DNA of 40,000 nucleotides. Origin: Vibrio cortegadensis (GTDB taxonomy: Bacteria; Pseudomonadota; Gammaproteobacteria; Enterobacterales; Vibrionaceae). The stretch spans positions 1,564,465-1,604,464 of the forward strand of contig NZ_AP025472.1 in assembly GCF_024347395.1 (NCBI RefSeq). Reading direction: 5' to 3'. The notes beneath the pieces were generated by a model that saw only the letters and a list, made by a program, of their open reading frames with translations, had not been told where the DNA came from and ran no database searches. This document shows, piece by piece, positions 22,945 to 40,000 of the stretch (positions within the stretch are counted from its first letter, which is position 1; each line of letters starts with the position of its first letter). Made by a program: the position numbers and the translations under genes.

Positions 22945-22960
22945 ACCTTTATGTGAAATC

Positions 22961-22988: not shown

Positions 22989-22994
22989 TTAATT

Positions 22995-23078: not shown

Positions 23079-23090
23079 TTGGATTTAATT

Positions 23091-24578: not shown

Positions 24579-24603
24579 TAAAAATAACTCATAGGTGATT
24601 TTT

Positions 24604-24984
24604 ATGGGATTCGTATATGGTGCCCTTTCTCTTGTTTTTACTTGGTTACGCAGTGCAATGCCTTGGCTTCTCGGTGCTGTCGGTGCTTCATTTTCTAACT
24701 GGATTGTAAGCGCGGGGTTTGGTGTCGTTGTCTTCTCTGGCTTTAATATTTTGACTAGTCGCCTCATTGGTACGGCTGTCAACTCGCTGAACGGCCTTGG
24801 TGATATTGGTGGGTTTGGTGCTGATATTGTTATGCTTCTCGGCTATATGTGGCTAGATAAAGCTCTTAACCTTGTTATTTCAACGGGTGCTTTTTTAATG
24901 GCGATTAAAGGAGTTCGTCAAGGTATTGCTATGCGTCAAGCTTGGTGGAAACCAGGTCAGAAAACTGGAGGAATGGAAGGTTGA
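24604..24984 (+). CDS. pVI-like minor coat membrane protein
   Basis: ~126-aa very hydrophobic protein between the pIII-like and Zot-like genes (an alternative GTG start lies at 24595). Confidence 0.6.
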   Translation: MGFVYGALSLVFTWLRSAMPWLLGAVGASFSNWIVSAGFGVVVFSGFNILTSRLIGTAVNSLNGLGDIGGFGADIVMLLGYMWLDKALNLVISTGAFLMAIKGVRQGIAMRQAWWKPGQKTGGMEG

Positions 24985-26312: not shown

Positions 26313-26720
26313 TTGCGCCCAGAAGCGCACCCAATGAACCTACCTACAAATGCGGATCAGCCCCGCAGGGATAAGCAAAGCACGTAGTGCAAGCGAAGCA
26401 CCAAGCCGCCCGACTTTGTTAACTGTGCCGTATGTCTAATCGGCGCGGTTAGCTTCACTATCCTTTGATCGTCCCACTCCCCACACCCTGCCAGAATGCT
26501 TTTAGTCTTTTAAAGGCTTGCGAGTGTCGAGCATGTCTTAATGATTTTTGTATTGGTTCGCGTGCGTGAGCAAAGGGATGGGAAGAGCGGAGCGCCGCCC
26601 TGCTCACGCCAACCCCCGTCATGTATTACGGGGGTACTATCCACGGAACTTTCAACCTTCCCCGACTATTCTCAAGTGTAACGCGCCAGTGTTTGAGCGT
26701 TAGCGAGTCTATATTACAAG
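26313..26720. other. ORF-free, G+C-richer structured intergenic segment (candidate inovirus origin / packaging / att region)
   Basis: No ORF of 60 aa or more on either strand. There are tandem hairpins: GCGTGAGCA (26564-26572) pairs with TGCTCACGC (26601-26609), and CCCCCGT (26613-26619) pairs with ACGGGGG (26628-26634). Confidence 0.5.
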
Positions 26721-26723
26721 TAT

Positions 26724-26746
26724 AAAAAAACCGCCCAATTGGGCGG
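26724..26746 (-). terminator. Intrinsic terminator of the exported-protein gene
   Basis: Perfect 16-nt palindrome CCGCCCAATTGGGCGG (26731-26746), followed on the minus strand by a 7-nt T-run. Confidence 0.8.
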
Positions 26747-26885
26747 CCGACTTCAAGCAAAGGTGTTCAAATTCTTAGAGTTCATAAACTGAACAAGCTT
26801 TACATTACAGAGTAATTTTGGCTCTCTCAATTCTCAATATAAATTATTAATACTCTCTCACATTTCATTGTAATTGATATGCTTC

Positions 26886-27488
26886 TTAGTAATTTTGAGC
26901 TCTTAATTGTGCAATTTTTCTTGCATACTCAGCATCAATTCTGTGAATTTCACGATCCCTTTCACGCTGTAGTCTTTTTATCTCTCGATTAATGTTCACG
27001 TAATTATCAGCCTGGTACTGGATATCACACCTGCTACTTACATCATTAATCGCTTTGTTCGAACCTGACAAATTGAATGATGTATTCATCTCACGCCTTC
27101 CAAAGACATGCACTTGCACATAAGCAGTTGTACCTTGCTTTAATTCATAAAGGATCCGTTTATCTACATTTCTAATCGCTCCTCCTTTATAGGAGGATGT
27201 GAACATATTTCCTTTCAAGTTATACACTCGGCCATTATCAATCTTAATTCTAAAATCGACACTTTGATTTGGTGTCGCAATATTATCTTTACCTGAAAAA
27301 GTTAGAAACAAATCTTTATCATAACGCCCTGAATCACAACGAAAACCCAATGAATTACCATGTGCATAGGTTGTACGCTCATACACCTGCTTGTTATTCA
27401 TATTATCAAAACGCATAGTTTCATTAAACGATGCATTACATACACTTGAAAACATACAAATGGTGAACCCCAAACGAAACCATTTCAT
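26886..27488 (-). CDS. Exported protein with a C-terminal charged coiled coil, function unknown
   Basis: 200 aa with signal peptide MKWFRLGFTICMFSSVCNA/SF, a probable beta-rich body with two Cys, and the tail INREIKRLQRERDREIHRIDAEYARKIAQLRAQNY. It is divergent from the rexA-like gene and very AT-rich. Confidence 0.6.
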   Translation of the reverse strand: MKWFRLGFTICMFSSVCNASFNETMRFDNMNNKQVYERTTYAHGNSLGFRCDSGRYDKDLFLTFSGKDNIATPNQSVDFRIKIDNGRVYNLKGNMFTSSYKGGAIRNVDKRILYELKQGTTAYVQVHVFGRREMNTSFNLSGSNKAINDVSSRCDIQYQADNYVNINREIKRLQRERDREIHRIDAEYARKIAQLRAQNY

Positions 27489-27742
27489 TAATTAAACCTC
27501 CTTACAGTTAAATTTGAGCAACTGATTGCACTATAAGATTTTCTAGGTTGCTCTTATGAGATTTATCTCAAAAATATACAAATAGGCCCAATGTCAACCT
27601 TAGTAAAAGAACAGCACTATATTCACACTGATTTTGTTAACTTTTTTTGTACAGCTCTATTATTATTGAATGACATATCTAATGTTGAGGAGTACCATGC
27701 GAATAAATAAAATTAATAATTAATGACTTAAAGGTTGTATAC

Positions 27743-28687
27743 ATGCGAGTTAGTTACTTTGGCTACCATTTGAACAATATAGACAATCAACACAAAACAT
27801 TGTTTGATATTCGCCCTTTTTTGCATTCTTTTTGTGCTTTAGATGCTGTTCAGTATAAAAATAATTTCACACACTCAGGCGAGCATTTGTATCTTTTTCC
27901 CGTTCATGGTGATGTATTTATGTTCGTAATGACACGTAGCAGTGACATTATCCGAAAAGTAAACACTAGAGAAATTACGGTAGAACAAATTCGTGATCTT
28001 TTAGGCGAAGATAACCAACTGGGGTTTGCTTCATATGTCCTTATCACTGAAAATTGCTTTGGATTCGGTTCAACTTTACTTGCACCTAAATCTGATGTTT
28101 TTATAGAATTTATTAACACAATCTTCATATCTCTTGGTATTGTTAATTGGAAATTAATTCCTTTTGCTTTAACTCATCAAGCTACACGTGCAGAAGCCAT
28201 GGAAATGTCGATTATAGGAACCACTGTGATCGAAATTTCGAAGGAAAATACTTTTGCAGAAGATTTCTTGAGACAATTAGGGATGACTACTGAGGAAACT
28301 CATAATTTAGAAGGCTTTGAATTGACATTTAAGCCTCGGTCAAGACAAAACATTAAGCCCGTTATTACAAACGTATTACAGCAGGTACCCGATGATGGCA
28401 TTACTAAACTGATTATCAAAGCTAAAAATGAAGTATCAGGGCACATGACCGATTTGTACCTAGTTAACTCTGGAATCTTACAAGATGATGTTAATAACTC
28501 TAGTGATCTGGCCATTGCCAGAAACATGGTAACTAAAAAAACCAACAACACCCTATTAACTGAAAAACTTGAGGAGTTTACACAAAATGAAGACCTCTCG
28601 GAAAGCACTATTGACGCTATTTCTCGTTATAATCACATCACTGCCTGGACCGATTTTGTATCTACTGTACAAACTGTTAGTGAATAA
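27743..28687 (+). CDS. rexA: RexA-like abortive-infection sensor protein
   Basis: 314 aa. Several blocks resemble lambda RexA as I remember it: HLYLFPVHGDVFMFVMT versus YLYIHKIDGKTFLFTKT, LGFASYVLITENCFGFG versus LGFPSFLFVEGDTIGFA, FELTFKPRSRQNIKPV versus LDIVIKPKFKRDIKKV, and IIKAKNEVSGHMTDLYL versus SLRAKDEAGDILTEHYL. Confidence 0.7.
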   Translation: MRVSYFGYHLNNIDNQHKTLFDIRPFLHSFCALDAVQYKNNFTHSGEHLYLFPVHGDVFMFVMTRSSDIIRKVNTREITVEQIRDLLGEDNQLGFASYVLITENCFGFGSTLLAPKSDVFIEFINTIFISLGIVNWKLIPFALTHQATRAEAMEMSIIGTTVIEISKENTFAEDFLRQLGMTTEETHNLEGFELTFKPRSRQNIKPVITNVLQQVPDDGITKLIIKAKNEVSGHMTDLYLVNSGILQDDVNNSSDLAIARNMVTKKTNNTLLTEKLEEFTQNEDLSESTIDAISRYNHITAWTDFVSTVQTVSE

Positions 28688-29051
28688 GGTATTAATTGAA
28701 CCTATTGTTTTAGTCGAACAGAAAACAAATATTGCCATTATATTAGCGACATTTGCGTTTACGATGATGGGTTTTTTAGCGGCTGTTATTACTATTTTCT
28801 TTTCGTTCGCTAAATCGAGAACGTTCAAGAAATTCAGCCGTGAAGGTCGTTTTGGCGTATTTTTTACTACTTATTATTACTGTATTATTTCACTCGCTCT
28901 AACCATGTGCTTTGCTTTGGTTACTTTAGGTAAAGGCACCTCTATATGGGCTATGCAAACAGCACTGATTACGACAGTAAATAGCTTATTTCAAATCTGC
29001 TTGATTACTTTTACTATCATTAATTTGAGTAAAAGGGCGATGAAGGAATAG
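28587..29051 (+). CDS. rexB: RexB-like four-TM membrane protein
   Basis: 154 aa from the ATG at 28587 (GAGGAG at 28571-28576). It has four hydrophobic helices, and the loop and tail resemble lambda RexB from memory (FAKSRTFKKFSREGRF versus IGSRTRRLAKIREYGY; FQICLITFTIINLSKR versus IHICILVFQLYNLTRE). It overlaps the rexA-like 3' end by 101 nt in another frame. Confidence 0.65.
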   Translation: MKTSRKALLTLFLVIITSLPGPILYLLYKLLVNKVLIEPIVLVEQKTNIAIILATFAFTMMGFLAAVITIFFSFAKSRTFKKFSREGRFGVFFTTYYYCIISLALTMCFALVTLGKGTSIWAMQTALITTVNSLFQICLITFTIINLSKRAMKE

Positions 29052-29055
29052 ATCT

Positions 29056-29074
29056 AGGCTCCTTTCTGGAGCCT
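29056..29074. terminator. Hairpin between convergent rexB-like and xafT-like genes
   Basis: AGGCTCC-TTTCT-GGAGCCT has a 7-bp stem. There is no strong T-run, so confidence is moderate to low. Confidence 0.4.
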
Positions 29075-29079
29075 TCGTA

Positions 29080-29451
29080 CTAACTGTTCATTATTAACGC
29101 AATACTACGAGCATATTTAAGCAACTTTGACATTGTTTTTACATCTAATTCTGCTTGAATTTCTAACAAAGCAATTCCAGTTAAAATCTCTTGTGGGGTC
29201 ACTAATTGGCCTGTCGGTAGTTCCAGTTTATCATTGCGCATGATGAATAGATTCCAATTATCTGATGGGGCAAGCTCTTTACCTTTATACATTTTCATTA
29301 ATCGCCGACACTCTGGCGGAATAGCTTTTCCTGCGTCCCAAAGCTTGACCGTCCTCACACTTTTAAAACATAGTTCAGCCGTCTTTTCTATACTAATTCC
29401 ACAAACTAATTCACGAAAAATATAATTTTTAGTCATTTCGTGGTACTTCAT
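29080..29451 (-). CDS. HTH + DUF3653-like protein (XafT-like candidate Xer activation factor), copy 1
   Basis: Likely ATG at 29451 (MKYHEMTKNY). It has an HTH-like segment TAELCFKSVRTVKLWDAGKAIPPECRRLM, then W..F......L.LPTGQLVTPQEI. It is a paralogue of the gene at 29779 and starts ~50 bp from dif-like site B. Confidence 0.6.
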   Translation of the reverse strand: MKYHEMTKNYIFRELVCGISIEKTAELCFKSVRTVKLWDAGKAIPPECRRLMKMYKGKELAPSDNWNLFIMRNDKLELPTGQLVTPQEILTGIALLEIQAELDVKTMSKLLKYARSIALIMNS

Positions 29452-29503
29452 TGATAACTCTCTCAAATGAGAAAGATATTATAAAAAGTGCGTATGCAAC
29501 TTG

Positions 29504-29532
29504 ATTTACCATAAGGGCGCATAATACGCACC
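29504..29532 (-). other. dif-like site B with a 7-nt spacer (attP/dif hybrid junction)
   Basis: The plus strand reads ATTTACCATAA-GGGCGCA-TAATACGCACC. The XerC arm is identical to site A. The XerD-type arm has one mismatch (C for A). The orientation matches site A. Confidence 0.7.
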
Positions 29533-29778
29533 GAGGGATTGTTTATTAACATTTGGTAAAACATTGATTAACGCATACATAAGTAATTGATACTTATGCC
29601 GAATTTATATTTAAACCCTATTTAATAACGTTTTGAAATACTTATGATTACTGGCGCTTGCTTTACGTAATCACAGCAAAAAGTCTCTTTTTCCACTGAG
29701 CGACATTTTGTCACGTGAATTGTTAAAAAATCATAAGAAAAAAATATTTCGTCAGTTATTTTATTTGTGAGGCAAATC

Positions 29779-30201
29779 ATGTTTTATGAGTCATTTAAAG
29801 TTCTGTTTTGGCGTGAGTTTACCTCTCACCGCCAAGGTGCTGAGTTTTTCCATGTGAAGATTGTCACAGTTCGACGTTGGCTAGACGGCAAAATCCCTGT
29901 CAATCCGATGGCTGAAAAACTCTTAATCATCAAATCACTTGGTTACTTGCCTAATGATATGCGTTGGCGTGGCTTTCGTATCTGTGAAAAACGTGCGGTG
30001 CTTCTTACCCCAACTGGACGCGAGTTCAGCCCTAAAGAATTAGAAAGCTTTGTGTTTTGGCGTGATGAACATCGACAATTGGTTGAGCAACATGGTCATG
30101 TGGATTACCCAAAGGTTTACCCTGCAAAAGAAAATGTGTTGCCGTTTCGTGGCGGTCGCCGAATGCAAGCCGCCCCGTGGATACCGACTAAATTTAAATA
30201 G
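29779..30201 (+). CDS. HTH + DUF3653-like protein (XafT-like), copy 2
   Basis: ATG at 29779 (MFYESFKVLFW, GAGG 6 nt upstream). It has AEFFHVKIVTVRRWLDGKIPVNPMAEKLLI, then MRWRGFRICEKRAVLLTPTGREFSPKELE. It is divergent from copy 1 across site B. Confidence 0.6.
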   Translation: MFYESFKVLFWREFTSHRQGAEFFHVKIVTVRRWLDGKIPVNPMAEKLLIIKSLGYLPNDMRWRGFRICEKRAVLLTPTGREFSPKELESFVFWRDEHRQLVEQHGHVDYPKVYPAKENVLPFRGGRRMQAAPWIPTKFK

Positions 30202-30204
30202 ACG

Positions 30205-30232
30205 TAAAAAAGCCCGCATTAGCGGGCTTTTT
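30205..30232. terminator. Bidirectional intrinsic terminator
   Basis: AAAAAA-AGCCCGC-ATTA-GCGGGCT-TTTT between convergent genes. Confidence 0.85.
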
Positions 30233-30238
30233 CTTTCC

Positions 30239-31216
30239 TCAGAAAGGAATATCATCATCAAAATCCGAAGAAGGTGGCGGTGGCGGCACTTGTACTGTTC
30301 GCTTTTCAATGGTAATAAACGCAGAATTCCAATTTTCAGGCGTGTAAACTTTAAGCGATTTATTCTCGTCAAAAATCTCTTCTGATATGGTTAACTCAAA
30401 TGAGTTATTGTACCAAGACAAATCGCTTCCAAAAGGAAATTCATACTCTTTATAGCCATATGTTTTCAAAATTTCACCAAGTTCTTGAATATTTTGAAAA
30501 TAAACCCGATGACCTATTCCTAGCTTAGTTCTCAACTCACTAAATGCTGGGTGGCTGTTCATCAGGATATTTTGAATTGCGTCACTTCCTCTATTTTTCT
30601 CTTCGCTTAAAAAAGTAACCAACGTTTTTAAAGTAGCTGAGGTTCTATTTATCTCATCAATTAAATTAACTTCTTTTCGTCGAGAGCTCTCACTCAAAAG
30701 GCTCTGAAAAAGTCCTGCCCACTGCTCTTTCAAATGATTAGTGATATCAACTACAGATTCAAATGCTTGTATTTGATTATTGTTAGGAAGTGAATGTATC
30801 TCATCGAGGAATTGAAAAATTCTATTATCATCTACTGATGCATACTTGATGCTGTCATTATCTTTATTTACTTTATATGTTTGATATTCAGCGTATACCG
30901 TTTTTTCAATAAAAATATAAAGCTGCTTTCCTTTTTTAACAGCCGTAGTTAACTCCACATTTGATACGGAGTGACTGCTATTCCCATGTTGAGATTGGGA
31001 GCCAAATCGACCGCCAATGACACCAACGACAATATCGCAAATTTCAATTTCTTTATAGCAATACTCTTCTAAACGTTTTTCTGAACCATAAGGAATATTG
31101 CCTTTTTCATTCAAAACCGGGTCATACCCTTGCTCTTTAATGAATCGCTCTAAATCATTTCTTATATATTTCAAGTCATAATAAGTCGAGCTTACAAAAA
31201 CACGGGGCTTTGCCAT
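30239..31216 (-). CDS. DUF4062 (TIR/deoxyribosyltransferase-like) N-terminal domain protein with an SSB-type C-terminal tail
   Basis: Likely start MAKPRVFVSSTYYDLKYIRNDLERFI (ATG at 31216; the ORF is open to 31252). The pattern VFVSST..DL...R..L......GY.PV..E.......E.C..EI..CD..VGVIG.R.G...S....E...A...GK matches DUF4062 as I remember it. The C-terminus verified from DNA is TVQVPPPPPSSDFDDDIPF*. Confidence 0.7.
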   Translation of the reverse strand: MAKPRVFVSSTYYDLKYIRNDLERFIKEQGYDPVLNEKGNIPYGSEKRLEEYCYKEIEICDIVVGVIGGRFGSQSQHGNSSHSVSNVELTTAVKKGKQLYIFIEKTVYAEYQTYKVNKDNDSIKYASVDDNRIFQFLDEIHSLPNNNQIQAFESVVDITNHLKEQWAGLFQSLLSESSRRKEVNLIDEINRTSATLKTLVTFLSEEKNRGSDAIQNILMNSHPAFSELRTKLGIGHRVYFQNIQELGEILKTYGYKEYEFPFGSDLSWYNNSFELTISEEIFDENKSLKVYTPENWNSAFITIEKRTVQVPPPPPSSDFDDDIPF

Positions 31217-31296
31217 GTTAAACCTATAATGTAAAAATTGATAATTAATCATATCACTTTAATCTCATACATAAGAATGATGACTCATACAAATAA

Positions 31297-31332
31297 TAAA
31301 AAAGCCGAACCCCATCACGGAGTTCGGCTTTT
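31297..31332. terminator. Bidirectional intrinsic terminator separating the DUF4062 cassette from the corticovirus-like late genes
   Basis: An A-run, then AGCCGAAC (31303-31310) pairing with GTTCGGCT (31322-31329), then TTTT. Confidence 0.8.
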
Positions 31333-31462
31333 GGTTTCCAGTGCAGCAAGCAAAAGCGCACTAAGGTGTTTAATGATTTATAAAACAACCACTTGAACGT
31401 TAACAATGTGTGCGTTAGATGTAAACCATATGGCACGTATGTTTTGAAATGACTCGCACGCC

Positions 31463-31648
31463 CTAGCCCTTTTCTAATGTTTCTAGTACCAACACACGGT
31501 CAGAAACGGCGCGCAATCCCTTTGATAACTCTTGAATGATGTGGTTTTGGTTTCGGATGTTTATGATCATCAAAATACCCAACACCAAAAACTGAGGTGA
31601 AATGCCCCATTCCACCAAGGCGTTAAACAGCGTGCTTTCCATCATCAC
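31463..31648 (-). CDS. Small membrane protein, lysis-cassette accessory candidate
   Basis: 61 aa with one TM (ISPQFLVLGILMIINI). It overlaps the upstream holin-like gene and is the last gene of the operon. Confidence 0.4.
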   Translation of the reverse strand: MMMESTLFNALVEWGISPQFLVLGILMIINIRNQNHIIQELSKGLRAVSDRVLVLETLEKG

Positions 31649-31850
31649 CGCCCTTGCCTTTCAATTCATCCCGGAATGCTTCCCACAACCCAACCACCGC
31701 AGGAATGGCAAGACCAACCGCACCGCCAAGATTTACGCCCGTTTGGGTAATTTCAGCACTGAATAAATGACCGTAGCCCGAAGATGCCGCAATCACTGAA
31801 CCAAGCAGCACAAGACCGCGCCACGTTGATGTTTGTTTAAGTTTTAGCAT
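31623..31850 (-). CDS. Holin-like two-TM protein
   Basis: 75 aa with two hydrophobic helices and a charged C-terminus (DELKGKGGDDGKHAV), downstream of the putative muralytic gene. Confidence 0.45.
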   Translation of the reverse strand: MLKLKQTSTWRGLVLLGSVIAASSGYGHLFSAEITQTGVNLGGAVGLAIPAVVGLWEAFRDELKGKGGDDGKHAV

Positions 31851-31862
31851 GTGTATTCCTTA

Positions 31863-32318
31863 CTATGCGAGTTTGACGCCTTGCATGGCATCGCTGAATG
31901 AGTAATGGCGACCCACTTCCATGATTGACATAGAGTGCAGCACTTTAGCCAATAGTTGGTCATCGTTTAGGTTGATGGATTCATTGACGCCAACACCGAC
32001 CTGTTTTGCTACGAACTGTGCGTAATTCTTCGTATCATTTTCTACTGGCGGTGCGAATCGGTTAATGATTTCGTTTAGATTGTCGAGTCCATGCGCCCGT
32101 TGATAGGTTCGCAAGGTTTTAGCGCCCGCCCGAAAGCCATATTTATGATGGGTATAGCTTTCAAATTCAGCATCACGGGAAAAGCTTGTTTCCCCTTGCC
32201 AATCGTTGCCTTTTCGAATGTTCAGCGGGTTATTGTTGCGAATTCCGCGGATGGTTTTTTTTGTCATATAGAGTGCAAAGCCCCCAAAGAAAATGAAGAT
32301 AATCAGATATAAACGCAT
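31863..32318 (-). CDS. Membrane-anchored phage protein with an RNNNPLNIR motif (putative muralytic/structural)
   Basis: 151 aa with an N-terminal TM and the motif GIRNNNPLNIRKGNDWQGE, which recurs in phage virion-associated or cell-wall-active proteins as I recall. Function not certain. Confidence 0.45.
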   Translation of the reverse strand: MRLYLIIFIFFGGFALYMTKKTIRGIRNNNPLNIRKGNDWQGETSFSRDAEFESYTHHKYGFRAGAKTLRTYQRAHGLDNLNEIINRFAPPVENDTKNYAQFVAKQVGVGVNESINLNDDQLLAKVLHSMSIMEVGRHYSFSDAMQGVKLA

Positions 32319-32320
32319 GG

Positions 32321-33340
32321 TTACACCTTGTAAAAATCAAACCCTGTCGGCATGGATGAATATTGAAAACTCATTTGCATGGCTTCAAGCTGTGCCGCCG
32401 ATGGGATATGGTCAACGGGATATTGGAACACCTTATAATCGCTGCCATGCTCGGTGATGGTTTGCACATGATAGCCAGATGCCAACATATGACGCGCCAT
32501 GCCAAACGGCGCATGAATTGCGTTGTGGTTAAAGCGAATCAAGCCCGCGCCCAAATCTTCAAAACCTATGGGTTTCATACAATCGGTCGCTTGGTAGTAT
32601 GGCGGCGCATGAGTAAATTCAAGCTTGGCAAGGTCGGCATCATCTGCCACAAACCCACACACGCCACGTTGAAGCCCAACAATGCCGGAATTTCTGACTT
32701 CCAAATACAACGCAACGTATGACGGTTGTTCAACCTGTACATTATTTTTCAGCGCACCAGAATCACAAGTCACAAAGCCGTCACCCGCAAAATCGGTGTG
32801 AATTTTTGAAGCTACTTTGTCGCCTAGCGTATGGCTGCCATCTTCACTCATGTGAATGAATCGAAAACCCACTTCCACCTCCGCGCCCGCCAATGCCATG
32901 ACATTGAACGCCGCACGAACAGACTTGCTTTCATCATTTTGTGGTGCGACCGGACGCAACACTTGATACATGGTGAAACCTTGGCACATGATTTGTGCAA
33001 AGTGCCGATTGGGTAACGTGTTGAGGTAATAATTACCCACACGGGACACGGGCGCGGTAATGCCCGCACCTGGTTGAACTTGAATTGCCCAACCATGCGC
33101 CAACATGAATTCAGCGCGCCCACCTAATGAGGTGACATTTAATGAAAATGGACGGTCAGAGCGTGATTGCGTGGTGACAAAACCACGGGCGCACATGCCA
33201 TGAAAATGACCGTTATCAATGAGGTTTGTGACTGCACCACCTGCCAACTTGCCCAACTCTTCGGCAAGGTATTCAATTTTGTTTCGGCTACTGCCATGCG
33301 GCAAATTTTTAAAAATTTCGTTCATGGGGTAAAGCTCCAT
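32321..33340 (-). CDS. Putative vertex/spike (receptor-binding) protein
   Basis: 339 aa, similar in size and position to the PM2 spike protein P1. There is no motif-level support. Confidence 0.35.
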   Translation of the reverse strand: MELYPMNEIFKNLPHGSSRNKIEYLAEELGKLAGGAVTNLIDNGHFHGMCARGFVTTQSRSDRPFSLNVTSLGGRAEFMLAHGWAIQVQPGAGITAPVSRVGNYYLNTLPNRHFAQIMCQGFTMYQVLRPVAPQNDESKSVRAAFNVMALAGAEVEVGFRFIHMSEDGSHTLGDKVASKIHTDFAGDGFVTCDSGALKNNVQVEQPSYVALYLEVRNSGIVGLQRGVCGFVADDADLAKLEFTHAPPYYQATDCMKPIGFEDLGAGLIRFNHNAIHAPFGMARHMLASGYHVQTITEHGSDYKVFQYPVDHIPSAAQLEAMQMSFQYSSMPTGFDFYKV

Positions 33341-33350
33341 AATTTGAGTG

Positions 33351-34010
33351 TTAAGACTCTAAGATAAATACGCGGTCAGTTGCAGCGCCCGTGAGTGCAA
33401 TGAGTGCGGAAGATTCAATATCAATCCGCTCACCCGCACTAAGTGGGTAAGCATTGTTAATCAACACATCACCTGTATTGGCGGTTGCTGCCTTGATGGT
33501 CACTTTGAAACGTGATGAATCAAAAGGAAGTTCAACGGGCAATGCTGAATCTTGTGCATTGATGCTTTTACTTCTCTTGAGTACCACAGGCGTTCGCTGT
33601 GAGACTTTAATCACTTGGTCGGGCGCAATTTCAACGGGCGGTAATGTTTCAAGGCTAACGGTTTGACCTGCTGCAATTTCCACCGCAGGAAGTGAATCAA
33701 TCGACGCGGTTAAGTGTTGGTTTTCTGCAATCACCATTGCGGGCATCACGCTTACTTCAAGCTGTTGCCCTTCCATTGGTGGCGTAAAATCTCCCACGCC
33801 ATGCTCAAACACCAAGCGACCAACGCCCGTGATGAAAATGCGCCCAAAGCGACTACCTGTGTTTTTATACAGTGATTTTTGCGTAAGCGTAAAAACCGCA
33901 CCTGTGGACTCAATTTCAATCTGAATTTTGCCCGTGGATAACTCCACAAACAGCCATTCAGAATCAAGCGTGACAGGGATTTTTTGTCCTTCAATAAGGT
34001 TCAATTCCAT
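33351..34010 (-). CDS. Putative structural protein
   Basis: 219 aa with a beta-rich composition. Its start overlaps the upstream stop by 1 nt. Confidence 0.35.
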   Translation of the reverse strand: MELNLIEGQKIPVTLDSEWLFVELSTGKIQIEIESTGAVFTLTQKSLYKNTGSRFGRIFITGVGRLVFEHGVGDFTPPMEGQQLEVSVMPAMVIAENQHLTASIDSLPAVEIAAGQTVSLETLPPVEIAPDQVIKVSQRTPVVLKRSKSINAQDSALPVELPFDSSRFKVTIKAATANTGDVLINNAYPLSAGERIDIESSALIALTGAATDRVFILES

Positions 34011-34426
34011 TACTTAACCGCCTTATAAGTGACAAAACCCAACACGGCAGCAACGAACATCATTAAGTACAAATTCATTGAATTTTGCTTACTTTGCCCG
34101 CCGTCCTTATTGAATTTGGCAAGCTCCATCATCGCGTTAATGTTTTTTGTGTTTTGCGTGGCTTGATTACCCGCAAGCCCTGCCATCATTTGCAAATTTT
34201 CACTGTTGCTTGAGCTGTATTCCTCCAACACACCGGAGGCAAAATCTGTGTTGATTTCGTGCATGTTTTCGGCGGCTTGAATTGCGCCGTGGTCGGTAGC
34301 GGTCACATTGATAGTGGAGTCATTGACTCCACTAATCGCCGTCCCTAAGTTGTCACCACTAATGGCATTTTGACCGCTAACGTTAGTGGTTTGGGTTTTG
34401 TTACTGGATTTGGATTTTCCACCCAT
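34010..34426 (-). CDS. C-terminally anchored virion membrane protein candidate
   Basis: 138 aa, Ser/Asn/Gly/Gln-rich, with C-terminal TM LYLMMFVAAVLGFVTY. Confidence 0.45.
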   Translation of the reverse strand: MGGKSKSSNKTQTTNVSGQNAISGDNLGTAISGVNDSTINVTATDHGAIQAAENMHEINTDFASGVLEEYSSSNSENLQMMAGLAGNQATQNTKNINAMMELAKFNKDGGQSKQNSMNLYLMMFVAAVLGFVTYKAVK

Positions 34427-34428
34427 GA

Positions 34429-34800
34429 TTACACCTTCATTTCCATGTGGGTTACGTCACCACATGCGTGTTCTTCGGTACTCAGGCGGCGACACAATCG
34501 CGCCACCAATGGAAAATAGGTTTCTGCTGAAATAGACGATAATCCCGCGCTTTTTACGTAGGCTTTCAACTCTCGCATTGCCGGAATAACGCCGCGTCCA
34601 GAAACGCCCCAAAGAAAGTAAGAATGACCGATAATCTCACCCGCCACCGTGACACGGTAACTATCATCAGATAACTCATAAAGGCTTACGCGCCCTGCGT
34701 TCACCTCATGTTTGAGTTTTTCAAATTCAGCCGGACAAGCTCGAAATGCTACTTTCAACCGCGCCAATGCGCGGGGACTATCAGAAACCAATTCAATCAT
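34429..34800 (-). CDS. Hypothetical phage protein
   Basis: 123-aa soluble protein with an ATGA overlap on the upstream gene. Confidence 0.4.
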   Translation of the reverse strand: MIELVSDSPRALARLKVAFRACPAEFEKLKHEVNAGRVSLYELSDDSYRVTVAGEIIGHSYFLWGVSGRGVIPAMRELKAYVKSAGLSSISAETYFPLVARLCRRLSTEEHACGDVTHMEMKV

Positions 34801-34991
34801 CTTTTAAGTGCCACCAAGGCAATCACTGCCACTATGCTCAATAACAGCCAAGGCTTTGCGCCTTTTGAGCCTCCCATACTAATCCCGCCCACGCTTTGCC
34901 CTGCGTTGGTGGTATTGGCGGCGGTCGATGGTCCCGCAGAACCACCCGTGAAACCGCCACCCCCTGTTAAACTGGTTAAACTGCCTAACAT
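34797..34991 (-). CDS. Gly-rich small membrane protein
   Basis: 64 aa with a Gly-rich N-terminus and C-terminal TM WLLLSIVAVIALVAL. It resembles the small internal-membrane proteins of PM2-type viruses. Confidence 0.45.
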   Translation of the reverse strand: MLGSLTSLTGGGGFTGGSAGPSTAANTTNAGQSVGGISMGGSKGAKPWLLLSIVAVIALVALKR

Positions 34992-35000
34992 TCGTCCCCC

Positions 35001-35135
35001 TTAAAAGAACTTGAGCATGGCAAGAATCGCCACCAATAGCGCCGCGAACCATAAGAGGTTTTTGGCGCCATCACTGAGACTAAACCCGACCCATACACCA
35101 GTAAGCGCAACCACCGGATAAACAATCAATGGCAT
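35001..35135 (-). CDS. 44-aa two-helix membrane peptide (not in the ORF track)
   Basis: My translation is MPLIVYPVVALTGVWVGFSLSDGAKNLLWFAALLVAILAMLKFF. It fills the gap between flanking genes exactly. Confidence 0.4.
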   Translation of the reverse strand: MPLIVYPVVALTGVWVGFSLSDGAKNLLWFAALLVAILAMLKFF

Positions 35136-35136
35136 G

Positions 35137-35478
35137 TTATTTCCCCTTCACTGCGAAATAGACCGCGCCCGCCAATACCAAGAACCCGCCACCAATGGCT
35201 AAATACATGCCGTAGTTATTCGGCGATTGGCGATAAACCACATCGCCATTAGGTTGTTGGTAATCGTTGCCGTCCCCACGGTGTGCGCTTGGGTTCGCTG
35301 AGTTAGATTGTTGCGCGTCTTCGTTGAGTTTGTTGGTGATAAGGTCGGGCGCAATGTCCCCGACTAAATCCACCGCACCACCAATGAGTTCACCGCCACT
35401 TTCTAAGATGCTTTCCCACCACGAACTTGACGAGGACTCGTTAAAAATATCCATATCGGTTTCCTTTGGTACTGGCAT
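35137..35478 (-). CDS. Small virion membrane protein candidate
   Basis: 113 aa with C-terminal TM MYLAIGGGFLVLAGAVYFAV. Confidence 0.45.
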   Translation of the reverse strand: MPVPKETDMDIFNESSSSSWWESILESGGELIGGAVDLVGDIAPDLITNKLNEDAQQSNSANPSAHRGDGNDYQQPNGDVVYRQSPNNYGMYLAIGGGFLVLAGAVYFAVKGK

Positions 35479-35486
35479 GACGCCCC

Positions 35487-36320
35487 TTACTTGGCTTGTG
35501 GTGAGATTTCGCCAACTTGCTCAATGGCTTCGATAATCACAGGCACGCTTCCCGCGCTTGCTTTCTCTAATTCAAATTGCAGTTGTTTAGCGGCATTGGT
35601 AGAAAGGCGACCTTCAACACCAAAACCAGTACGAACAAAATCAAGCGTGAACCATCCCGCGTTTTGCTCTAAACCCGCCACGGCAAGGTCAAAAGCGTTA
35701 TCTGCTTTAGATACGTTGATTTCTTCACGCTCGTCACGCATGACACGAACACGGTCAATCGTGTCGTCTTTGAAGTGAATACGTTTGATTGAAAGGAACG
35801 GTGAACGCTCGGCAAAATCGAACGGAGTGCGACCGGACGCCGCCGCGTACCACGTTAATGAATACAGACGCGGCAAATAAATGCGGCGAGATTGGGCGGC
35901 GGTTGTGTGGGCGCGTGCTTTGATTGATGGCGCGGCTTGGTCGGCTTTGGCTTTAAGCTGAATGTAAAGCATCCAGATTTCACCCTGTAGCGTCACCAGT
36001 TCACCCGTGCGAACACCCGCCTTTGTGCGAAGCGTTAGATCAGCAAATGGGATGATGTAGCGCCCTTTTTGCGTGAACTGTTTGCGGTGCTCTTGAAAGT
36101 CCACCAAATCTTGACCTGTCACACCAATGATTTCTTTACCGTTTAACTTGAGCGTGACGCGCTCAATGTCTGCTGGGTCAAGAATGTCAGTGACTAATTC
36201 AATGTTTTGGTAAGTGGGACCCGTTACCACGCGCAATGTTGCCTGATTACCCCAGTTAACACCTTCAACCGGGTCTAACTCACGTGGGCGTGGGTTAAAT
36301 GGTGTGTTCATCATTTCCAT
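35487..36320 (-). CDS. Major capsid protein, PM2 P2-like (double jelly-roll lineage)
   Basis: ~277 aa from MEMMNTPF. Blocks resemble PM2 P2 as I remember it: PTYQNIELVTDILDPADIERVTLKLNGKEI versus QTYEVIDLRYSGVTPSQIKNVRVELDGRLL, FTLDFVRTGF versus YTIDFMLEGD, and a similar C-terminal LQFELEK...IIEAIEQVG. The size matches. Confidence 0.65.
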   Translation of the reverse strand: MEMMNTPFNPRPRELDPVEGVNWGNQATLRVVTGPTYQNIELVTDILDPADIERVTLKLNGKEIIGVTGQDLVDFQEHRKQFTQKGRYIIPFADLTLRTKAGVRTGELVTLQGEIWMLYIQLKAKADQAAPSIKARAHTTAAQSRRIYLPRLYSLTWYAAASGRTPFDFAERSPFLSIKRIHFKDDTIDRVRVMRDEREEINVSKADNAFDLAVAGLEQNAGWFTLDFVRTGFGVEGRLSTNAAKQLQFELEKASAGSVPVIIEAIEQVGEISPQAK

Positions 36321-36457
36321 TAGAACCACCCCTTATCACCATTAATCGTGTCTTTTACAGCGCCTAACGCTGACACGTTGTTAATAAGGGCAAGAATGCC
36401 AACCGTAAGCAATACCGTAGTGCCTAGGGGAATAAGCGTGCTTTTATTTAGTTTCAT
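36320..36457 (-). CDS. 45-aa membrane peptide, first gene of the structural operon (not in the ORF track)
   Basis: My translation is MKLNKSTLIPLGTTVLLTVGILALINNVSALGAVKDTINGDKGWF. It has a GGAAAGG RBS and a TAATG overlap with the capsid gene start. Confidence 0.4.
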   Translation of the reverse strand: MKLNKSTLIPLGTTVLLTVGILALINNVSALGAVKDTINGDKGWF

Positions 36458-36541
36458 AAACCTTTCCAGTTTGTGAGTGAATAAATCATTCAATAGAGAG
36501 GCTTTAAGGTTGGCGATTTTGAGGAAATTAAACAGAGGGAG

Positions 36542-36576
36542 TAACCTAATAGGTTAAGGCTTTAACCTATTAGGTA
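36542..36576. promoter_or_regulatory. Twin palindromic operator-like sites
   Basis: TAACCTAATAGGTTA (36542-36556; AACCTA-A-TAGGTT is a perfect dyad) and TAACCTATTAGGTA (36563-36576). The centres are 21 bp apart. They lie in the 200-bp gap between the structural operon and a divergent small ORF. Confidence 0.55.
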
Positions 36577-36659
36577 AAGAGGATAGAAACGAACGATTGC
36601 TTTTATATTTCTTGTTTGCGATATACAATACGCAAAACCATAAAACAGCGTAGATATGC

Positions 36660-36944
36660 ATGTCTGACCTAAAGTTTTCTCCCACTAAATTGTTTAACCT
36701 AGCATCGAAAAAAATTAATGATTACCTTGATGAAGCACTTGAGAATGAAAGAATTAAGCAAGAAAACCATCCACAGCGGCTTGAAGAAATAAGAATTGAA
36801 GGCGAATTTCGACGCAAGCAGCAAGCAGAACGACACAAACAAAAAATAGCAAAAATACTCAGAGAGACTCCTCAGGTTTCCCCAGAAGACCAAGCCATAT
36901 ATGATGACTTTGTTCGAAAATTGGAAAAGGAAGGGAAAATGTAG
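36660..36944 (+). CDS. Charged coiled-coil hypothetical protein on the opposite strand (regulator or moron)
   Basis: 94 aa, Lys/Glu/Arg-rich and AT-rich compared with the surrounding prophage. It is the only plus-strand gene inside the minus-strand train. Confidence 0.4.
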   Translation: MSDLKFSPTKLFNLASKKINDYLDEALENERIKQENHPQRLEEIRIEGEFRRKQQAERHKQKIAKILRETPQVSPEDQAIYDDFVRKLEKEGKM

Positions 36945-36973
36945 GCGACAAGCTATTTTATCGCCTAATAACA

Positions 36974-37699
36974 CTAGTTAAGACAGTTGATTTCGCCGCG
37001 TTTAACATTACCAATGCCATCACAAAACATCAGATATTGGGCAATGCCTTGGTTAGTTTTGGCGGTTTTAAGGCTTGCCAGTTCGTTGACATCATGGCTT
37101 TTTTGGTCGGCGATGTAGTTTGCATCTGCCATGCTTGCCAAGCCACCCACCCACCATGTAGGTGATTGACTGCTGACGGTTTTCGGCACTTCCTGCGTGC
37201 GTTGGAATGTGGAATGGATAATCAAACCAAATTGACGCCCACCGCGCCACAGTTCGCCCGATTTGCCTTTTAGCTTGCCCGTGGTTTCAACTGTACTGGC
37301 TAACTCTTCAATCCCAACGTAAAGCGGCGGTTTCTGTCCATCGCCACAACTCCAGACAATCGCCGCAAAGGTTTCAAGGTTCACGCCGTTTGCTTCCTTA
37401 ACCAACGCCAGTTTAAACCCTGTTTTCTTACTGCGTGCCGCCACCAAAGCGCGGGCGAACGGGGCAAACTCAGTAAACATTTTGACTTGCTGCCCTTGGA
37501 ACTTCTTACCCGCATAATTTTGGTATGGGTCAAAAAATACCGCTTGGCTTTTCTTGGGTATCAAGCCCAATTTTTTCACGGCGGTGGTCTTCCCGCTGCC
37601 CGTAGTACCGATATAAACGCAATGCTCGGCATCCAGTGCCGGATTGCTGTTAATCGGCATAGGCAATCTAAGCGGCGGCTGTTTCGCTTTCTTTGCCAT
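36974..37699 (-). CDS. P-loop genome-packaging ATPase (PM2 P9 / FtsK-HerA-type)
   Basis: 241 aa with Walker A GTTGSGKTT and a Walker B-like LYVGIEELA. Size and position are typical of membrane-containing tailless phages. Confidence 0.65.
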   Translation of the reverse strand: MAKKAKQPPLRLPMPINSNPALDAEHCVYIGTTGSGKTTAVKKLGLIPKKSQAVFFDPYQNYAGKKFQGQQVKMFTEFAPFARALVAARSKKTGFKLALVKEANGVNLETFAAIVWSCGDGQKPPLYVGIEELASTVETTGKLKGKSGELWRGGRQFGLIIHSTFQRTQEVPKTVSSQSPTWWVGGLASMADANYIADQKSHDVNELASLKTAKTNQGIAQYLMFCDGIGNVKRGEINCLN

Positions 37700-38180
37700 C
37701 GTTCGCCGCCTCCGCTTGCGCTTTCATCAGTTGTTCAGTTTGCAGACGCTTAATGATGTTAATGCTTGAGTAACCAAGCCCCACCGTTGCCACGCCAAAC
37801 ATGATCTCTTCTTTGTAAGCATCAAACCATTTCAGCCACGTTAAACCGTACTTACCAATCAAGGGCGCGCACGCTTCAAGGAATTTAGCGCGGGCGGTTT
37901 CATCAAAGGCAAAATCCACACCGGACGCACCCGAAATGTATTGCTCAGACATGAACAGACCCATATCAACAAAGCCCACGGCGGCGCTTGGGTCGAGTGC
38001 TTCGGGTTGGTCTTCTAATTCCGTTTCGGGTTCATCTGGCGCGCCACTTTCCACCGTATCGATGGCGTCTAAATCGGCAAACGCTTGGTTAAAATCTTGT
38101 GCCATTGGTGCGGTTTGGTTGTCGGCTTGATGTTCGGTTTCAAGCTCGGTGTTTTCTGGTTTATCCATGTGCGGGTACAT
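37668..38180 (-). CDS. Acidic hypothetical protein
   Basis: 170 aa with a strongly acidic N-terminal half (DAIDTVESGAPDEPETELEDQPEALD). It overlaps both neighbours. Confidence 0.4.
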   Translation of the reverse strand: MYPHMDKPENTELETEHQADNQTAPMAQDFNQAFADLDAIDTVESGAPDEPETELEDQPEALDPSAAVGFVDMGLFMSEQYISGASGVDFAFDETARAKFLEACAPLIGKYGLTWLKWFDAYKEEIMFGVATVGLGYSSINIIKRLQTEQLMKAQAEAANDGKESETAAA

Positions 38181-38610
38181 CCTTTTTATTCAGCATAAAG
38201 AAAAGCACTATCAGCGCAAACAGCGCCAATAGGTACGGTTTAGCCGTTTCAAGCCTTGTTTTACTTGGCTTGGGCGGCGTTTCGGGTTCAATTGGTGGTT
38301 TGGCTTCCGCGGGTACAACAGGCGGCTTACTTGGCGTTACAGTGTCGCGTTTAACTGGCTCCATTGGCTCAATTTCTGCCTTGGTCGGTTTCATGTTGGC
38401 GTTGATGTAGCTTTGGAATGTTTCGCCTTTGCCTTGCTGAAAGCCGCAGCATGGACAGTTGTAATATAAACGCCCTGTATTGCGTTTATTCTTGGGTGGC
38501 GTGCCGTCGGTAATGATTCGGTGTTCACCGACTGCGTGAACCGTGGCAACCGCGCCACAGTCCGGCATATGACAGCGAACAAACCCTTTAATTGGATTCT
38601 TACTCGCCAT
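38161..38610 (-). CDS. Zinc-ribbon protein with a Pro-rich linker and C-terminal TM
   Basis: Start at MASKNPIKGF (TAATG overlap). It has CHMPDC...CPCC four-Cys ribbon, the linker PSKPPVVPAEAKPPIEPETPPKPSK, and TM PYLLALFALIVLFFML. Confidence 0.5.
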   Translation of the reverse strand: MASKNPIKGFVRCHMPDCGAVATVHAVGEHRIITDGTPPKNKRNTGRLYYNCPCCGFQQGKGETFQSYINANMKPTKAEIEPMEPVKRDTVTPSKPPVVPAEAKPPIEPETPPKPSKTRLETAKPYLLALFALIVLFFMLNKKDVPAHG

Positions 38611-38780
38611 TAAATACCCCCATCCAATTGACGTTCGAGCGTTGCCATGCGTTCGTTGGTTAACTTCATCCAAACCAAAAAGAGGCGAAGTGGTGCCATG
38701 AGTTTGCTTGCAAAGGGATTCTTTGAGGCTTTTTGTACTTCCTGCTCTAATTCGTCAGTGATGTGTTGTGCTTTTTCCAT
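38610..38780 (-). CDS. Small hypothetical protein
   Basis: 56 aa from MEKAQHITDEL (AAGGA RBS), chosen because the longer ORF would overlap the Rep 3' end. Confidence 0.35.
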   Translation of the reverse strand: MEKAQHITDELEQEVQKASKNPFASKLMAPLRLFLVWMKLTNERMATLERQLDGGI

Positions 38781-38845
38781 GTGTTCATTTTCCTTTTTTC
38801 TAGCCAATGAGTGATGTTTTCCCCTGCAAGCAACCCCAAACGGGA

Positions 38846-40000
38846 TTAATTTATTCTCAATCGACCGTTGTTCAGCTTGAGCGTGCAATATTGGTCGATT
38901 GGGACGGACGCGCCATTTTTTAACGGCTTAATCAGTGCAGTAACTCCTTTGATGCTCCATCCGGTGAGCTTTCTTAATTCAATAATTAAGGGTGAGTTAC
39001 ACTTATTTTCAGTGCTCCAAGGGGAGCCGCTCCGCGACTCTAAAAGCCGTGGCAAGTCTTTCGTTTTTACTAAGCTGTAGCACTCGCTTGCTGTTTCGAT
39101 AACCGAACCAAGCCAAGAAAAACCAATAATTTTACGAACGGTTTCACCGTATTGATTTTCGTTGTTTTGATATTCAAGTTTTGCACTACTGGCAAGTTGA
39201 CAAAATAACGCCCACTTGGAGGAATCCGCCGCTTGGCGTAATGCTTCCAATTTGGGGTCGTTGCATGTTTGTTCTTCGGTGGTTTTTCGCAGGGCGCGCC
39301 ATAATGAAACAGGTTCACCACCAAATTGCTGAAACTGGCGAATACGGTGAACCGATGCCCACGCCCGAACCTTAAACGCGCTTTCTTCGGCTTCGGTTTC
39401 TGGCATGTGCTTACCATTGATATTTTTAGATACATACTTGGCAATGTATGCCGTAGCGCCGCCCTTGCTTGGGTCGGATTCCGTCACATCAAAGCGCGGC
39501 GAGGTATCATTGCCCAACTCTTCACGGTCTTCATAAATGGCTTCACTGCGTAGTGTGCTAATCACAAATTGCTTGTCACTTGGGTGGCAAAACAAAAAAT
39601 AGTGGCTGTGGCTTGTGCCATCCTTGTGAGGTTCAGCAACACGAAAACCGAAGTAATCCACCTCTTTTTTAGCCAGTTTGGCGCGGGCAACTGCCCATTT
39701 AGCCATTGATGCAGTGTGTCCTTCTTTGACGCTTGCGCCATTCCAACGGTGTGACACTCGGTGATATTTACTCGGCAACGTCCATGTGATGAAAAGTGCG
39801 GTAAAGCCTAACTCTTCCGCCAACTCTTCAAACCCTCTTGAGCGCACCATCATTTCAATGCGGCGATTTTCGGGATTAGAAACGGTACGCTTGGCAACCT
39901 CTTCAAGTTTGAAATTCTCGCCCGTTTCTTCATTGAACACGCTCATGGACTGCATGAACTGTTGTGATTCTTGCTGCTTACGTTTCCAATTTAAAAAGGA
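38846..40000 (-). CDS. Rolling-circle replication endonuclease, P2 gpA / PM2 P12-like (5' end probably outside the window)
   Basis: HUH-type motif RVAEPHKDGTSHSHYFLF and catalytic Tyr motif ATAYIAKYVSKNINGKH, as in P2 gpA from memory. The frame stays open from 39955 to the window edge (..SFLNWKRKQQESQQF-MQSM..). Confidence 0.8.
   Translation of the reverse strand, partial: SFLNWKRKQQESQQFMQSMSVFNEETGENFKLEEVAKRTVSNPENRRIEMMVRSRGFEELAEELGFTALFITWTLPSKYHRVSHRWNGASVKEGHTASMAKWAVARAKLAKKEVDYFGFRVAEPHKDGTSHSHYFLFCHPSDKQFVISTLRSEAIYEDREELGNDTSPRFDVTESDPSKGGATAYIAKYVSKNINGKHMPETEAEESAFKVRAWASVHRIRQFQQFGGEPVSLWRALRKTTEEQTCNDPKLEALRQAADSSKWALFCQLASSAKLEYQNNENQYGETVRKIIGFSWLGSVIETASECYSLVKTKDLPRLLESRSGSPWSTENKCNSPLIIELRKLTGWSIKGVTALIKPLKNGASVPIDQYCTLKLNNGRLRIN

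Follow-up and report, generated by a model that had tools for sequence, protein, structure and literature searches.

PM2-like prophages were listed in 2007 by Krupovic & Bamford, who recorded some without integrases and cited CTX-phi as a precedent for relying on XerC and XerD, recombinases of the host. Integration by XerCD at dif was proposed for the tailless vibriophage NO16 in 2023 (PMC9966536), and a survey of marine Vibrio prophages reported a few tailless prophages at dif, with variable loci near their borders (ISME J 2024; PMC11630473). Ma & Zhang (Commun Biol 2025; PMC12715192) define 'dif-type DJR prophages' (DJR, double-jelly-roll) by p15/XafT, p16/RstR and a dif-like attP that is full, left-armed or right-armed; they describe a variable region of 1.9 kb between p15 and a lysis gene and a mean size of 12.9 +/- 1.0 kb, and count CTX-I plus dif-type DJR pairs as 43% of published two-unit arrays. 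XafT itself belongs to TLC-phi and, in the study describing it (PMC6744903), combines helix-turn-helix (HTH) and DUF3653 parts and activates XerD with no need of FtsK; the XerD arm of the TLC-phi attP is poor, and DUF3653 genes cluster by dif. Here we analyse a 40,000-nt stretch of the Vibrio cortegadensis genome (NZ_AP025472.1, positions 1,564,465 to 1,604,464; the window). At the dif1 site, this stretch very probably carries a temperate PM2-like prophage of ~12.46 kb (order Vinavirales), which has no integrase and was apparently acquired through the host Xer recombinases.

The PM2-like element spans window position 29522 to window-equivalent ~41980, or 12,459 bp, of which the window holds the left three quarters, and its borders are base-exact under a XerC-side crossover. 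Its right end was taken from contig L012 (JAUFQX010000017.1 of GCA_030410015.1, V. cortegadensis), a find made through the capsid protein; over 12,232 nt this contig matches window 27769-40000 at 100% identity, and it runs 6.3 kb further (window position = 46321 minus L012 position). The features that define the element and its surroundings are as follows.

19512-19539, minus strand: site A, functional chromosomal dif1, GGTGCGTATTA TGTGTA TTATGTTAAAT, at the XerD-side end of the array
19540-29503, plus strand: neighbouring filamentous prophage, a CTX-I/VGJ-like element of the IMEX kind (an integrative mobile element that exploits Xer), separate from the PM2-like element
29504-29532, minus strand: site B, hybrid junction and left end of the PM2-like prophage, with XerC arm GGTGCGTATTA, centre TGCGCCC and XerD arm TTATGGTAAAT
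29546-29551, minus strand: conserved hexamer TGTTAA on the p15 side of the XerC arm, 13 nt outside it
29779-30201, plus strand: p15, HTH plus DUF3653, XafT family, presumed XerD activator (Pfam DUF3653 1.4e-20; phrog_8213 2e-81)
35487-36320, minus strand: major capsid protein, 277 aa, double-jelly-roll, PM2 P2 family (Pfam and structure model)
41964-41991 (window-equivalent): junction C, right-end half dif, AGTGCGTATTA TGTATA CAGTGGTAATT, five bases past the repressor gene

Two prophages, the PM2-like element and the filamentous one, form a two-unit array at dif, bounded by ccoNOP/NosP on one side and HDOD/matP on the other. Site A is the window's sole full dif match, where shuffled sequences give an expectation of 0, and the host genes to its left (ccoNOP, NosP, a hybrid kinase), together with matP beyond the array, fit a terminus locus. 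Read from the XerC side, the array begins with the host flank and host XerC arm, which run into the phage centre and degenerate arm of junction C and then into the PM2-like prophage. There follows the XerC arm of the PM2-like phage (29522-29532), joined at site B to the 7-nt centre and near-perfect XerD arm of the filamentous phage, and then the filamentous prophage itself, whose XerC arm is joined to the host centre and XerD arm at site A before host DNA resumes. By this make-up of the junctions, the PM2-like element arrived first and the filamentous phage second. The latter now borders the functional dif, and the PM2-like element sits between it and the host XerC-side flank (HDOD, matP).

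An initial annotation of the window had proposed a PM2-like prophage at 31463-40000 adjoining the dif array. The proposal is borne out by the gene set, the capsid fold and both ends, and none of the conditions named as refuting it held. The gene content within that span stands, but the start does not: the true left end is site B, so the DUF3653 gene and a cargo gene also belong to the element. Minus-strand genes cover 92.5% of the bases in 31463-40000, where GC content is 47.3%, as against 40.7% for host DNA at 1-19511.

Past base 40000, L012 holds the remainder of the replication gene, small open reading frames (ORFs) of 93, 137 and 61 aa, and a divergent gene for an 87-aa HTH repressor (phrog_4441 1.3e-24) that is 32% identical to the RstR-like protein of the filamentous phage. 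Junction C then consists of a XerC arm, TGTATA and a degenerate XerD arm, in which CAGTGGTAATT mismatches TTATGTTAAAT at 5 of 11 positions (4-6 in relatives). At this dif-like half site the element ends, 1.96 kb past the window edge; a non-coding stretch with a terminator follows, and then host genes encoding HDOD and DUF3634 proteins, MatP and a Lon-like protease. The DNA beyond 40 kb thus holds the right end, and neither a tyrosine or serine integrase nor a conventional att site was found there. Four contigs, each from a different further sequencing run, carry copies of the prophage at ~98% identity; one of them (L002, an unrelated run) has the same junction and the same host flank, the flank being 94.5% identical.

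The host-side DNA by junction C (L012 4283-4329; L002 146-191) includes a ~50-nt relic comprising the last 17 codons of a DUF3693 RstR-like repressor gene (VLSLAAFEAESSPLS...). The relic and the 3' end of the filamentous prophage repressor gene by site A (window 19540-19585) share 90-92% identity, a resemblance in sequence that hints at a scar left here at dif by an earlier filamentous IMEX.

When the right end from L012 is joined to the left end from window 29522 onward, the two recreate a single repressor-attP-p15 segment, as in the NO16 virion genome. In one direction, the packaged circular NO16 genome (MH730557) reads repressor gene (3005-3274), GTTTACCACAT TATACA TAATGCGCACC (3281-3308) and DUF3653 gene (3558-3989). 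Our joined ends are colinear with NO16 3011-3813 with spacing preserved: the two genes align at 72% and 71% nucleotide identity and attP at 23 of 26 positions, and the encoded repressor and p15 are 75% and 65% identical to NO16 gp06 and gp07, respectively. Located at the chromosomal dif, without a recombinase of its own, and bounded by dif-like junctions that rejoin to a dif-like attP, the element has the sequence features of an IMEX.

Relatives retrieved with the capsid protein share this arrangement. In V. cincinnatiensis (L008), the half site GGTGCGCATTA CGTATA ATGTGGTAAAG at 4174 is followed by a 12.1-kb element, p15 and, at 16265, a perfect dif that also has a CGTATA centre; no ORF of this element other than a 661-aa Rep exceeds 285 aa, the ORFs having been listed by size only and not domain-scanned. 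Contigs L006, L007 and L001 (PQ189338) have the same half site beside the repressor gene and the same architecture. The attP centre matches the local dif centre at 6 of 6 positions in L008 (CGTATA), and in our element (TGTATA) at 6 of 6 against a second V. cortegadensis strain and 5 of 6 against site A. That second strain (GCA_013114135.1, L054 ~7935-7962) has dif centre TGTATA and XerC arm AGTGCGTATTA, as opposed to TGTGTA and GGTGCGTATTA in the window strain; both centre and XerC arm thus vary within V. cortegadensis, possibly through IMEX traffic. The deposited 'complete genome' PQ189338.1 includes, at 1-1069, a 930-nt IS629-transposase-like gene outside its half dif (1042-1069), and the deposited border is probably ~1 kb too generous.

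In IMG/VR, ~30 loci encode a p15 homologue with a XerC arm ~247 nt upstream of the gene, in most cases fused, as at site B, to a 7-nt centre and a filamentous-type XerD arm. TGGGCGC/TGCGACG-type centres recur beside p15 genes in many IMG/VR loci. From such loci, the pairing of filamentous and PM2-like prophages appears to be systematic. An exact IMG/VR search for the predicted attP (26-nt pattern) gave 0 matches, so that collection does not include this very phage in circular form.

On the XerD side of site A, 75-120 nt from dif, window 19392-19440 contains two XerD-arm-like motifs (TTATGGTAAAT, 7 nt, TTGTTAAAT) in the orientation opposite to dif. This block is conserved in Vibrio floridensis (L011 4157-4205) despite divergence of the surrounding intergenic DNA.

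The identity of the virus is anchored by its capsid protein, which is 100% identical to an NCBI entry named 'major capsid protein P2 [Vibrio cortegadensis]'. It matches Pfam P2_N (4e-49) and P2_C (1.6e-38), aligns over its full length with the PM2 P2 chain 2vvf (phmmer, E 2.9e-5) and is 22% identical to PM2 P2 by BLASTP (E 2.5e-7). Single-sequence AlphaFold2 gave an unusable model (predicted local distance difference test, pLDDT, 34.7), which we replaced with a run using 44 homologues (pLDDT 89.8; predicted template modelling score, pTM, 0.87). The best PDB match of this model is PM2 P2 (2vvf_A; E 3e-22, template modelling (TM) scores 0.84/0.87, root-mean-square deviation 2.4 A), and the next are the capsid proteins of STIV, PBCV-1 and PRD1. 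These matches identify the capsid protein as a double jelly roll, in agreement with the fold anticipated in the initial annotation. The packaging ATPase, which that annotation had marked for comparison with PM2 P9, is 26.5% identical to it (BLASTP, E 8e-15).

No ORF from site B to the true right end matches an integrase family, which extends the absence first noticed within the window, and domain searches that included L012 found no integrase, resolvase or transposase domain in any gene between site B and junction C. Rfam and tRNA scans were likewise without a match, so there is no tRNA-type att site. By its Pfam match, the gene proposed to be XafT-like at the site-B end does encode a DUF3653 protein. 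Together, Xer-type junctions at both ends, the lack of an integrase and the DUF3653 gene support the earlier suggestion of a Xer-dependent integrative element. Two other arrangements were considered and rejected. Integration by the HUH-type Rep does not fit, as both ends are Xer-type sites; nor is 29532-31463 a separate element, since no dif-like site lies between these positions and both the relatives and NO16 tie p15 to the same phage.

We propose the following life cycle by homology and analogy with described phages. After infection, the circular double-stranded DNA (dsDNA) would present an attP that mimics dif1 in its XerC arm and 6-bp centre but has a poor XerD arm, and host XerC and XerD would synapse it with dif1. 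p15 would then activate XerD catalysis without FtsK, as XafT does for TLC-phi, and XerC would complete the exchange. The 87-aa repressor would keep lysogeny, and excision would reverse the same reaction, giving the predicted circular junction ...AATTACCACTG TATACA|TAATACGCACC GAGGGATTG.... By homology to PM2 and NO16, we expect rolling-circle replication by the HUH Rep, packaging by the P9-like ATPase into a membrane-lined double-jelly-roll capsid, and release by the P5-like lysin with two small holin-like membrane proteins.

Several observations weigh against this account. The roles of XerC, XerD and p15 are assigned by homology, the excision, circles and particles of this prophage are predictions from its sequence, and a 2026 structure paper on NO16 guesses at an anti-CRISPR-associated role for the p15 homologue. 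The functional dif centre here (TGTGTA) is one base off the phage centre (TGTATA), and site B now holds a foreign 7-nt centre, so solo excision by full two-strand exchange may be impaired. No empty dif was recovered from a sister strain by way of the neighbouring kinase, as both available assemblies break at the array. Finally, the two vertex-sized proteins have no sequence match in PDB, PM2 or NO16 (GP13 included); the larger, of 334 aa, which occupies the place of the PM2-type spike, matches neither PM2 P1 nor NO16 GP13.

One rival reading concerns the order of strand exchange. In the XerC-first pathway of VGJ-phi and CTX-phi, an IMEX undergoes a single strand exchange, replication resolves the junction, and p15 would be a mere transcription regulator, which is what Ma & Zhang call P15 ('transcriptional regulator'; PMC12715192). 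A perfect XerC arm beside a poor XerD arm could favour such XerC-only chemistry, and the host-type XerC arm (AGTG...) at junction C and phage-type arm (GGTG...) at site B fit a XerC-side crossover. However, TLC-phi also combines a poor XerD arm with XafT, and DUF3653 is the domain proposed for XafT's activation of XerD, most DUF3653 genes adjoining dif (PMC6744903). Complete two-strand exchange, as in TLC-phi, is expected, from the general tyrosine-recombinase mechanism, to need a matching centre, and the centre of the phage agrees with that of the local dif at 6 of 6 or 5 of 6 positions; the filamentous phage of the array, by contrast, has the unrelated 7-nt centre that a XerC-first pathway predicts and that looks like a XerC-first (VGJ-type) site. 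We therefore consider a XerC-first route unlikely for the PM2-like element, and infer by analogy with TLC-phi that integration and excision proceed XerD-first and XerC-second, with p15 in the role of XafT.

Whether the prophage is still mobile is a separate matter. It is known here from its genes alone, the centre of site B has been mismatched (7 nt) since the filamentous phage arrived, and degraded IMEX relics do occur at the locus (the 50-nt RstR relic by junction C), all of which could describe a fixed, cryptic remnant kept for its cargo or for its dif-proximal XerC arm. Against such a remnant, the PM2-syntenic genes are all intact ORFs at a coding density of 92.5%, the ~98% identical copies come from four contigs of four other runs, with L002 joined to the same host locus, and related Vibrio prophages and NO16 are inducible (PMC11630473, PMC9966536); we find immobility quite improbable. 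A conventional prophage with an integrase and att site just outside the window has precedent, as integrase-type PM2-like prophages exist in Vibrio and two relatives (L009 and L010) contain no dif-like site in a pattern scan, although an integrase was not looked for in them. In L012, however, the element ends at a dif half site with host HDOD and matP directly after it and no integrase domain, which refutes this explanation unless L012 is misassembled and leaves its probability close to nil. A temperate, Xer-dependent prophage is the reading we retain.

The rest of the element, from the cargo region to the replication gene, is organized as follows.

30239-31252, minus strand: variable cargo region (pHVR) with a gene for a 337-aa protein, N-terminal DUF4062 (Pfam 1.4e-18; GC 34%)
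31300-31332, minus strand: terminator hairpin closing the late/lysis operon at the conserved boundary of the cargo region (terminator scan)
31463-31850, minus strand: two overlapping small holin-like membrane ORFs, 61 and 75 aa (phrog_15202 2e-9, phrog_8494 2e-31)
31863-32318, minus strand: peptidoglycan hydrolase, homologue of PM2 P5 and NO16 GP11 (phrog_873 endolysin 1.3e-53)
32321-34010, minus strand: two proteins of vertex size, of 219 aa and of 334 aa (the latter where PM2 has its spike P1), assigned by position alone
34010-35478, minus strand: five small, mostly membrane proteins of 138, 123, 64, 44 and 113 aa (PHROG matches; positions of PM2 P3, P4, P8 and gp j)
36320-36457, minus strand: 45-aa membrane peptide, PM2 P7 homologue (phrog_30767 virion structural protein)
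36660-36944, plus strand: charged 94-aa protein, sole plus-strand gene of the core, inside a low-GC switch region
36974-37699, minus strand: P-loop genome-packaging ATPase, FtsK/HerA type, PM2 P9 homologue (phrog_2666 1e-51)
37668-38780, minus strand: acidic 170-aa protein, 149-aa Zn-ribbon protein and 56-aa ORF (phrog_12153 4e-39, phrog_33229 9e-54)
38846-40000 and onward to window-equivalent 40666, minus strand: HUH rolling-circle Rep (Phage_GPA), C-terminal 385 codons in the window

The genes named in the initial annotation were all found at the place and in the order it gave, on the minus strand, with one correction: the tiny membrane proteins counted there as four after the capsid gene are five (113, 44, 64, 123 and 138 aa). 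Pairwise homology extends to PM2 P12, P14, P9, P7, P2, gp j and P5, all in PM2 gene order. The motifs HSHYFLF and YIAKYVSKNI both occur in Rep, whose identity to PM2 P12 is 36% (E 6e-78; BLASTP, as for the comparisons below); the Rep ORF is open at the window edge, with ~220 N-terminal codons outside, and the Pfam Phage_GPA match strengthens from 1.8e-58 for the part in the window to 7.6e-73 for the full 606 aa. The Zn-ribbon protein weakly resembles PM2 P14 (34% identity over 47 residues, E 6e-4). An exact-protein look-up of the acidic 170-aa ORF, which has a TTG start, returned none, because the real gene starts later; look-ups with the ATPase and with the capsid protein did succeed. Pfam matches of the ATPase to DUF87/FtsK are weak. 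The 45-aa peptide is 49% identical to PM2 P7 (E 1e-6), and the N-terminus of the 138-aa protein is 46% identical to PM2 gp j (E 2e-4). Among the vertex-sized pair, phrog_12976 (4e-6) matches on the N-terminus alone and phrog_12829 at 2e-63. The lysin is 40% identical to PM2 P5 (E 6e-33) and 45% to NO16 gp11, and the 75-aa holin-like protein is 45% identical to NO16 gp09.

Between the ATPase and capsid genes, the gap at 36330-36974 has a GC content of ~41% and contains the 94-aa opposite-strand gene, which gene calling also finds in L012 and in each of the four related Logan contigs. NO16 likewise encodes a small protein on the opposite strand here; PM2 does not.

The p15 gene starts 247 nt from the XerC arm. 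DUF3653 covers residues 59-126 of its product, and the N-terminus was judged HTH-like by eye and from the 65% identity to NO16 gp07, without an HTH domain match. To the right of site B the order is the DUF3653 gene, a terminator, the DUF4062 gene, a second terminator and the holin-like genes. Relatives carry other genes at the cargo position, and the block at 31298-31362 is 87-88% identical in L001 and L006; on this comparison of sequences, we regard the low-GC DUF4062 gene as exchangeable cargo. The C-terminus of its product is proline-rich and acidic, and PADLOC gave no match for the gene, which may be an unclassified defence gene.

The filamentous neighbour encodes an RstR-like repressor (DUF3693/HTH), Rep_trans (Pfam 1.3e-17) and Zot (Pfam 2.5e-13), and its 7-nt centre TGCGCCC is unrelated to the dif centre, which we take to be typical of VGJ-type sites. 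A gene at 29080-29466 with weak resemblance to XafT encodes a protein 27% identical to p15, and between this gene and zot lies a RexA/RexB abortive-infection pair as cargo (27743-29051; PADLOC 3e-62 and 1e-23).

The TGTTAA hexamer keeps its position, with diverged flanks, in the window, L006 (twice), L007, L008, the NO16 virion attP and two IMG/VR groups; it also occurs at L013 3322-3328 and in ~25 IMG/VR loci, for 8 diverged lineages in all. It is identical to the XerD-specific core of a dif arm. A second reading, on the minus strand, makes it a -35 box, with a TATTAT -10 supplied by the XerC arm 17 nt away; such a promoter would point across attP. We tentatively suggest, while holding it rather doubtful, that the hexamer is either an accessory XerD-loading site that offsets the degenerate XerD arm or the -35 of an outward promoter with its -10 in the XerC arm. 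Promoter reading would couple Xer binding to expression across attP, but it is speculative, because scanning for promoters around site B and the attP of NO16 gave a site count not above shuffles. The sections consulted of Ma & Zhang 2025 (PMC12715192) and of the XafT-type IMEX papers make no mention of TGTTAA 13 nt from the XerC arm, and its conservation, as judged from alignment of these loci, is mildly new.

The value of the locus is mainly confirmatory and practical, the general idea being already published. The earlier view that Xer use would be notable for an icosahedral dsDNA phage overestimated its novelty, as the class was published in 2023-2025 (PMC9966536, PMC11630473, PMC12715192). 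What the locus offers is a fully delimited example, in the typical two-unit array with a filamentous phage, of an icosahedral, membrane-containing dsDNA phage that apparently borrows host chromosome-dimer resolution instead of an integrase of its own, together with accurate limits for a prophage that automated tools are prone to fuse to the one beside it. Cargo genes at the terminus of one Vibrio chromosome are identified as well: DUF4062 here, and RexAB in the neighbouring phage.

Among described systems, PM2 (a Pseudoalteromonas phage of the Corticoviridae; AF155037) has the same gene order throughout and the same capsid fold (TM 0.84-0.87). It differs in being known as a lytic Pseudoalteromonas isolate, in lacking a cargo region and, according to PMC12715192, in a putative attP that is 'left-armed', with the XerD arm kept; PM2 gp a, gp c and spike P1 have no BLASTP similarity to proteins of our element. 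NO16 ('Asemoviridae'; PMC9966536, PMC13552765; MH730557) resembles the element in its repressor (75%), gp05 (60%), p15 (65%) and attP (23 of 26 positions, same spacing), and likewise combines a P9-type ATPase and a P5/GP11-type lysin with a double-jelly-roll capsid. Its capsid protein is only 22% identical, however, its Rep and vertex proteins have no BLASTP similarity to ours, and its genome of 10.6 kb has no gene at the position of our cargo. The closest nucleotide relatives are the V. cyclitrophicus tailless prophages (PQ189338, PQ189336, PQ189349; PMC11630473), which show ~72-78% identity over about half of the query and have the same gene order with p15 at one end, but differ in their cargo genes. 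GenBank places the nearest relatives in Vinavirales only; assignment of our element to this order is safe, and we stop short of a family because its capsid protein is 22% identical to those of PM2 and NO16 and its spike candidate has no detectable homologue.

TLC-phi (V. cholerae; PMC6744903, PMC9226527) is another IMEX whose attP has a degenerate XerD arm and an adjoining HTH plus DUF3653 gene, and which joins filamentous phages in dif1 arrays. TLC-phi is a small satellite of a filamentous single-stranded DNA phage, whereas here the module would serve an icosahedral membrane-containing dsDNA virus, the activity of p15 being assigned by analogy. The nearest counterparts are the dif-type DJR prophages, whose published description (PMC12715192) does not mention V. 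cortegadensis. They share with the window element the absence of an integrase, the p15 and p16-repressor termini, the cargo site, the DJR capsid and a CTX-I-type partner, with no essential difference; in their terms, our case is 'right-armed', with a 17-bp attP (centre plus XerC arm), and at 12.46 kb it falls within 12.9 +/- 1.0 kb. Because it matches every published dif-type DJR feature, the window element is a further case of this described class. From its sequence, it is a mosaic, and a mildly new one, of a PM2-like replication and structural core with a NO16-like lysogeny module (gp04-gp07 equivalents, 60-75% identity).

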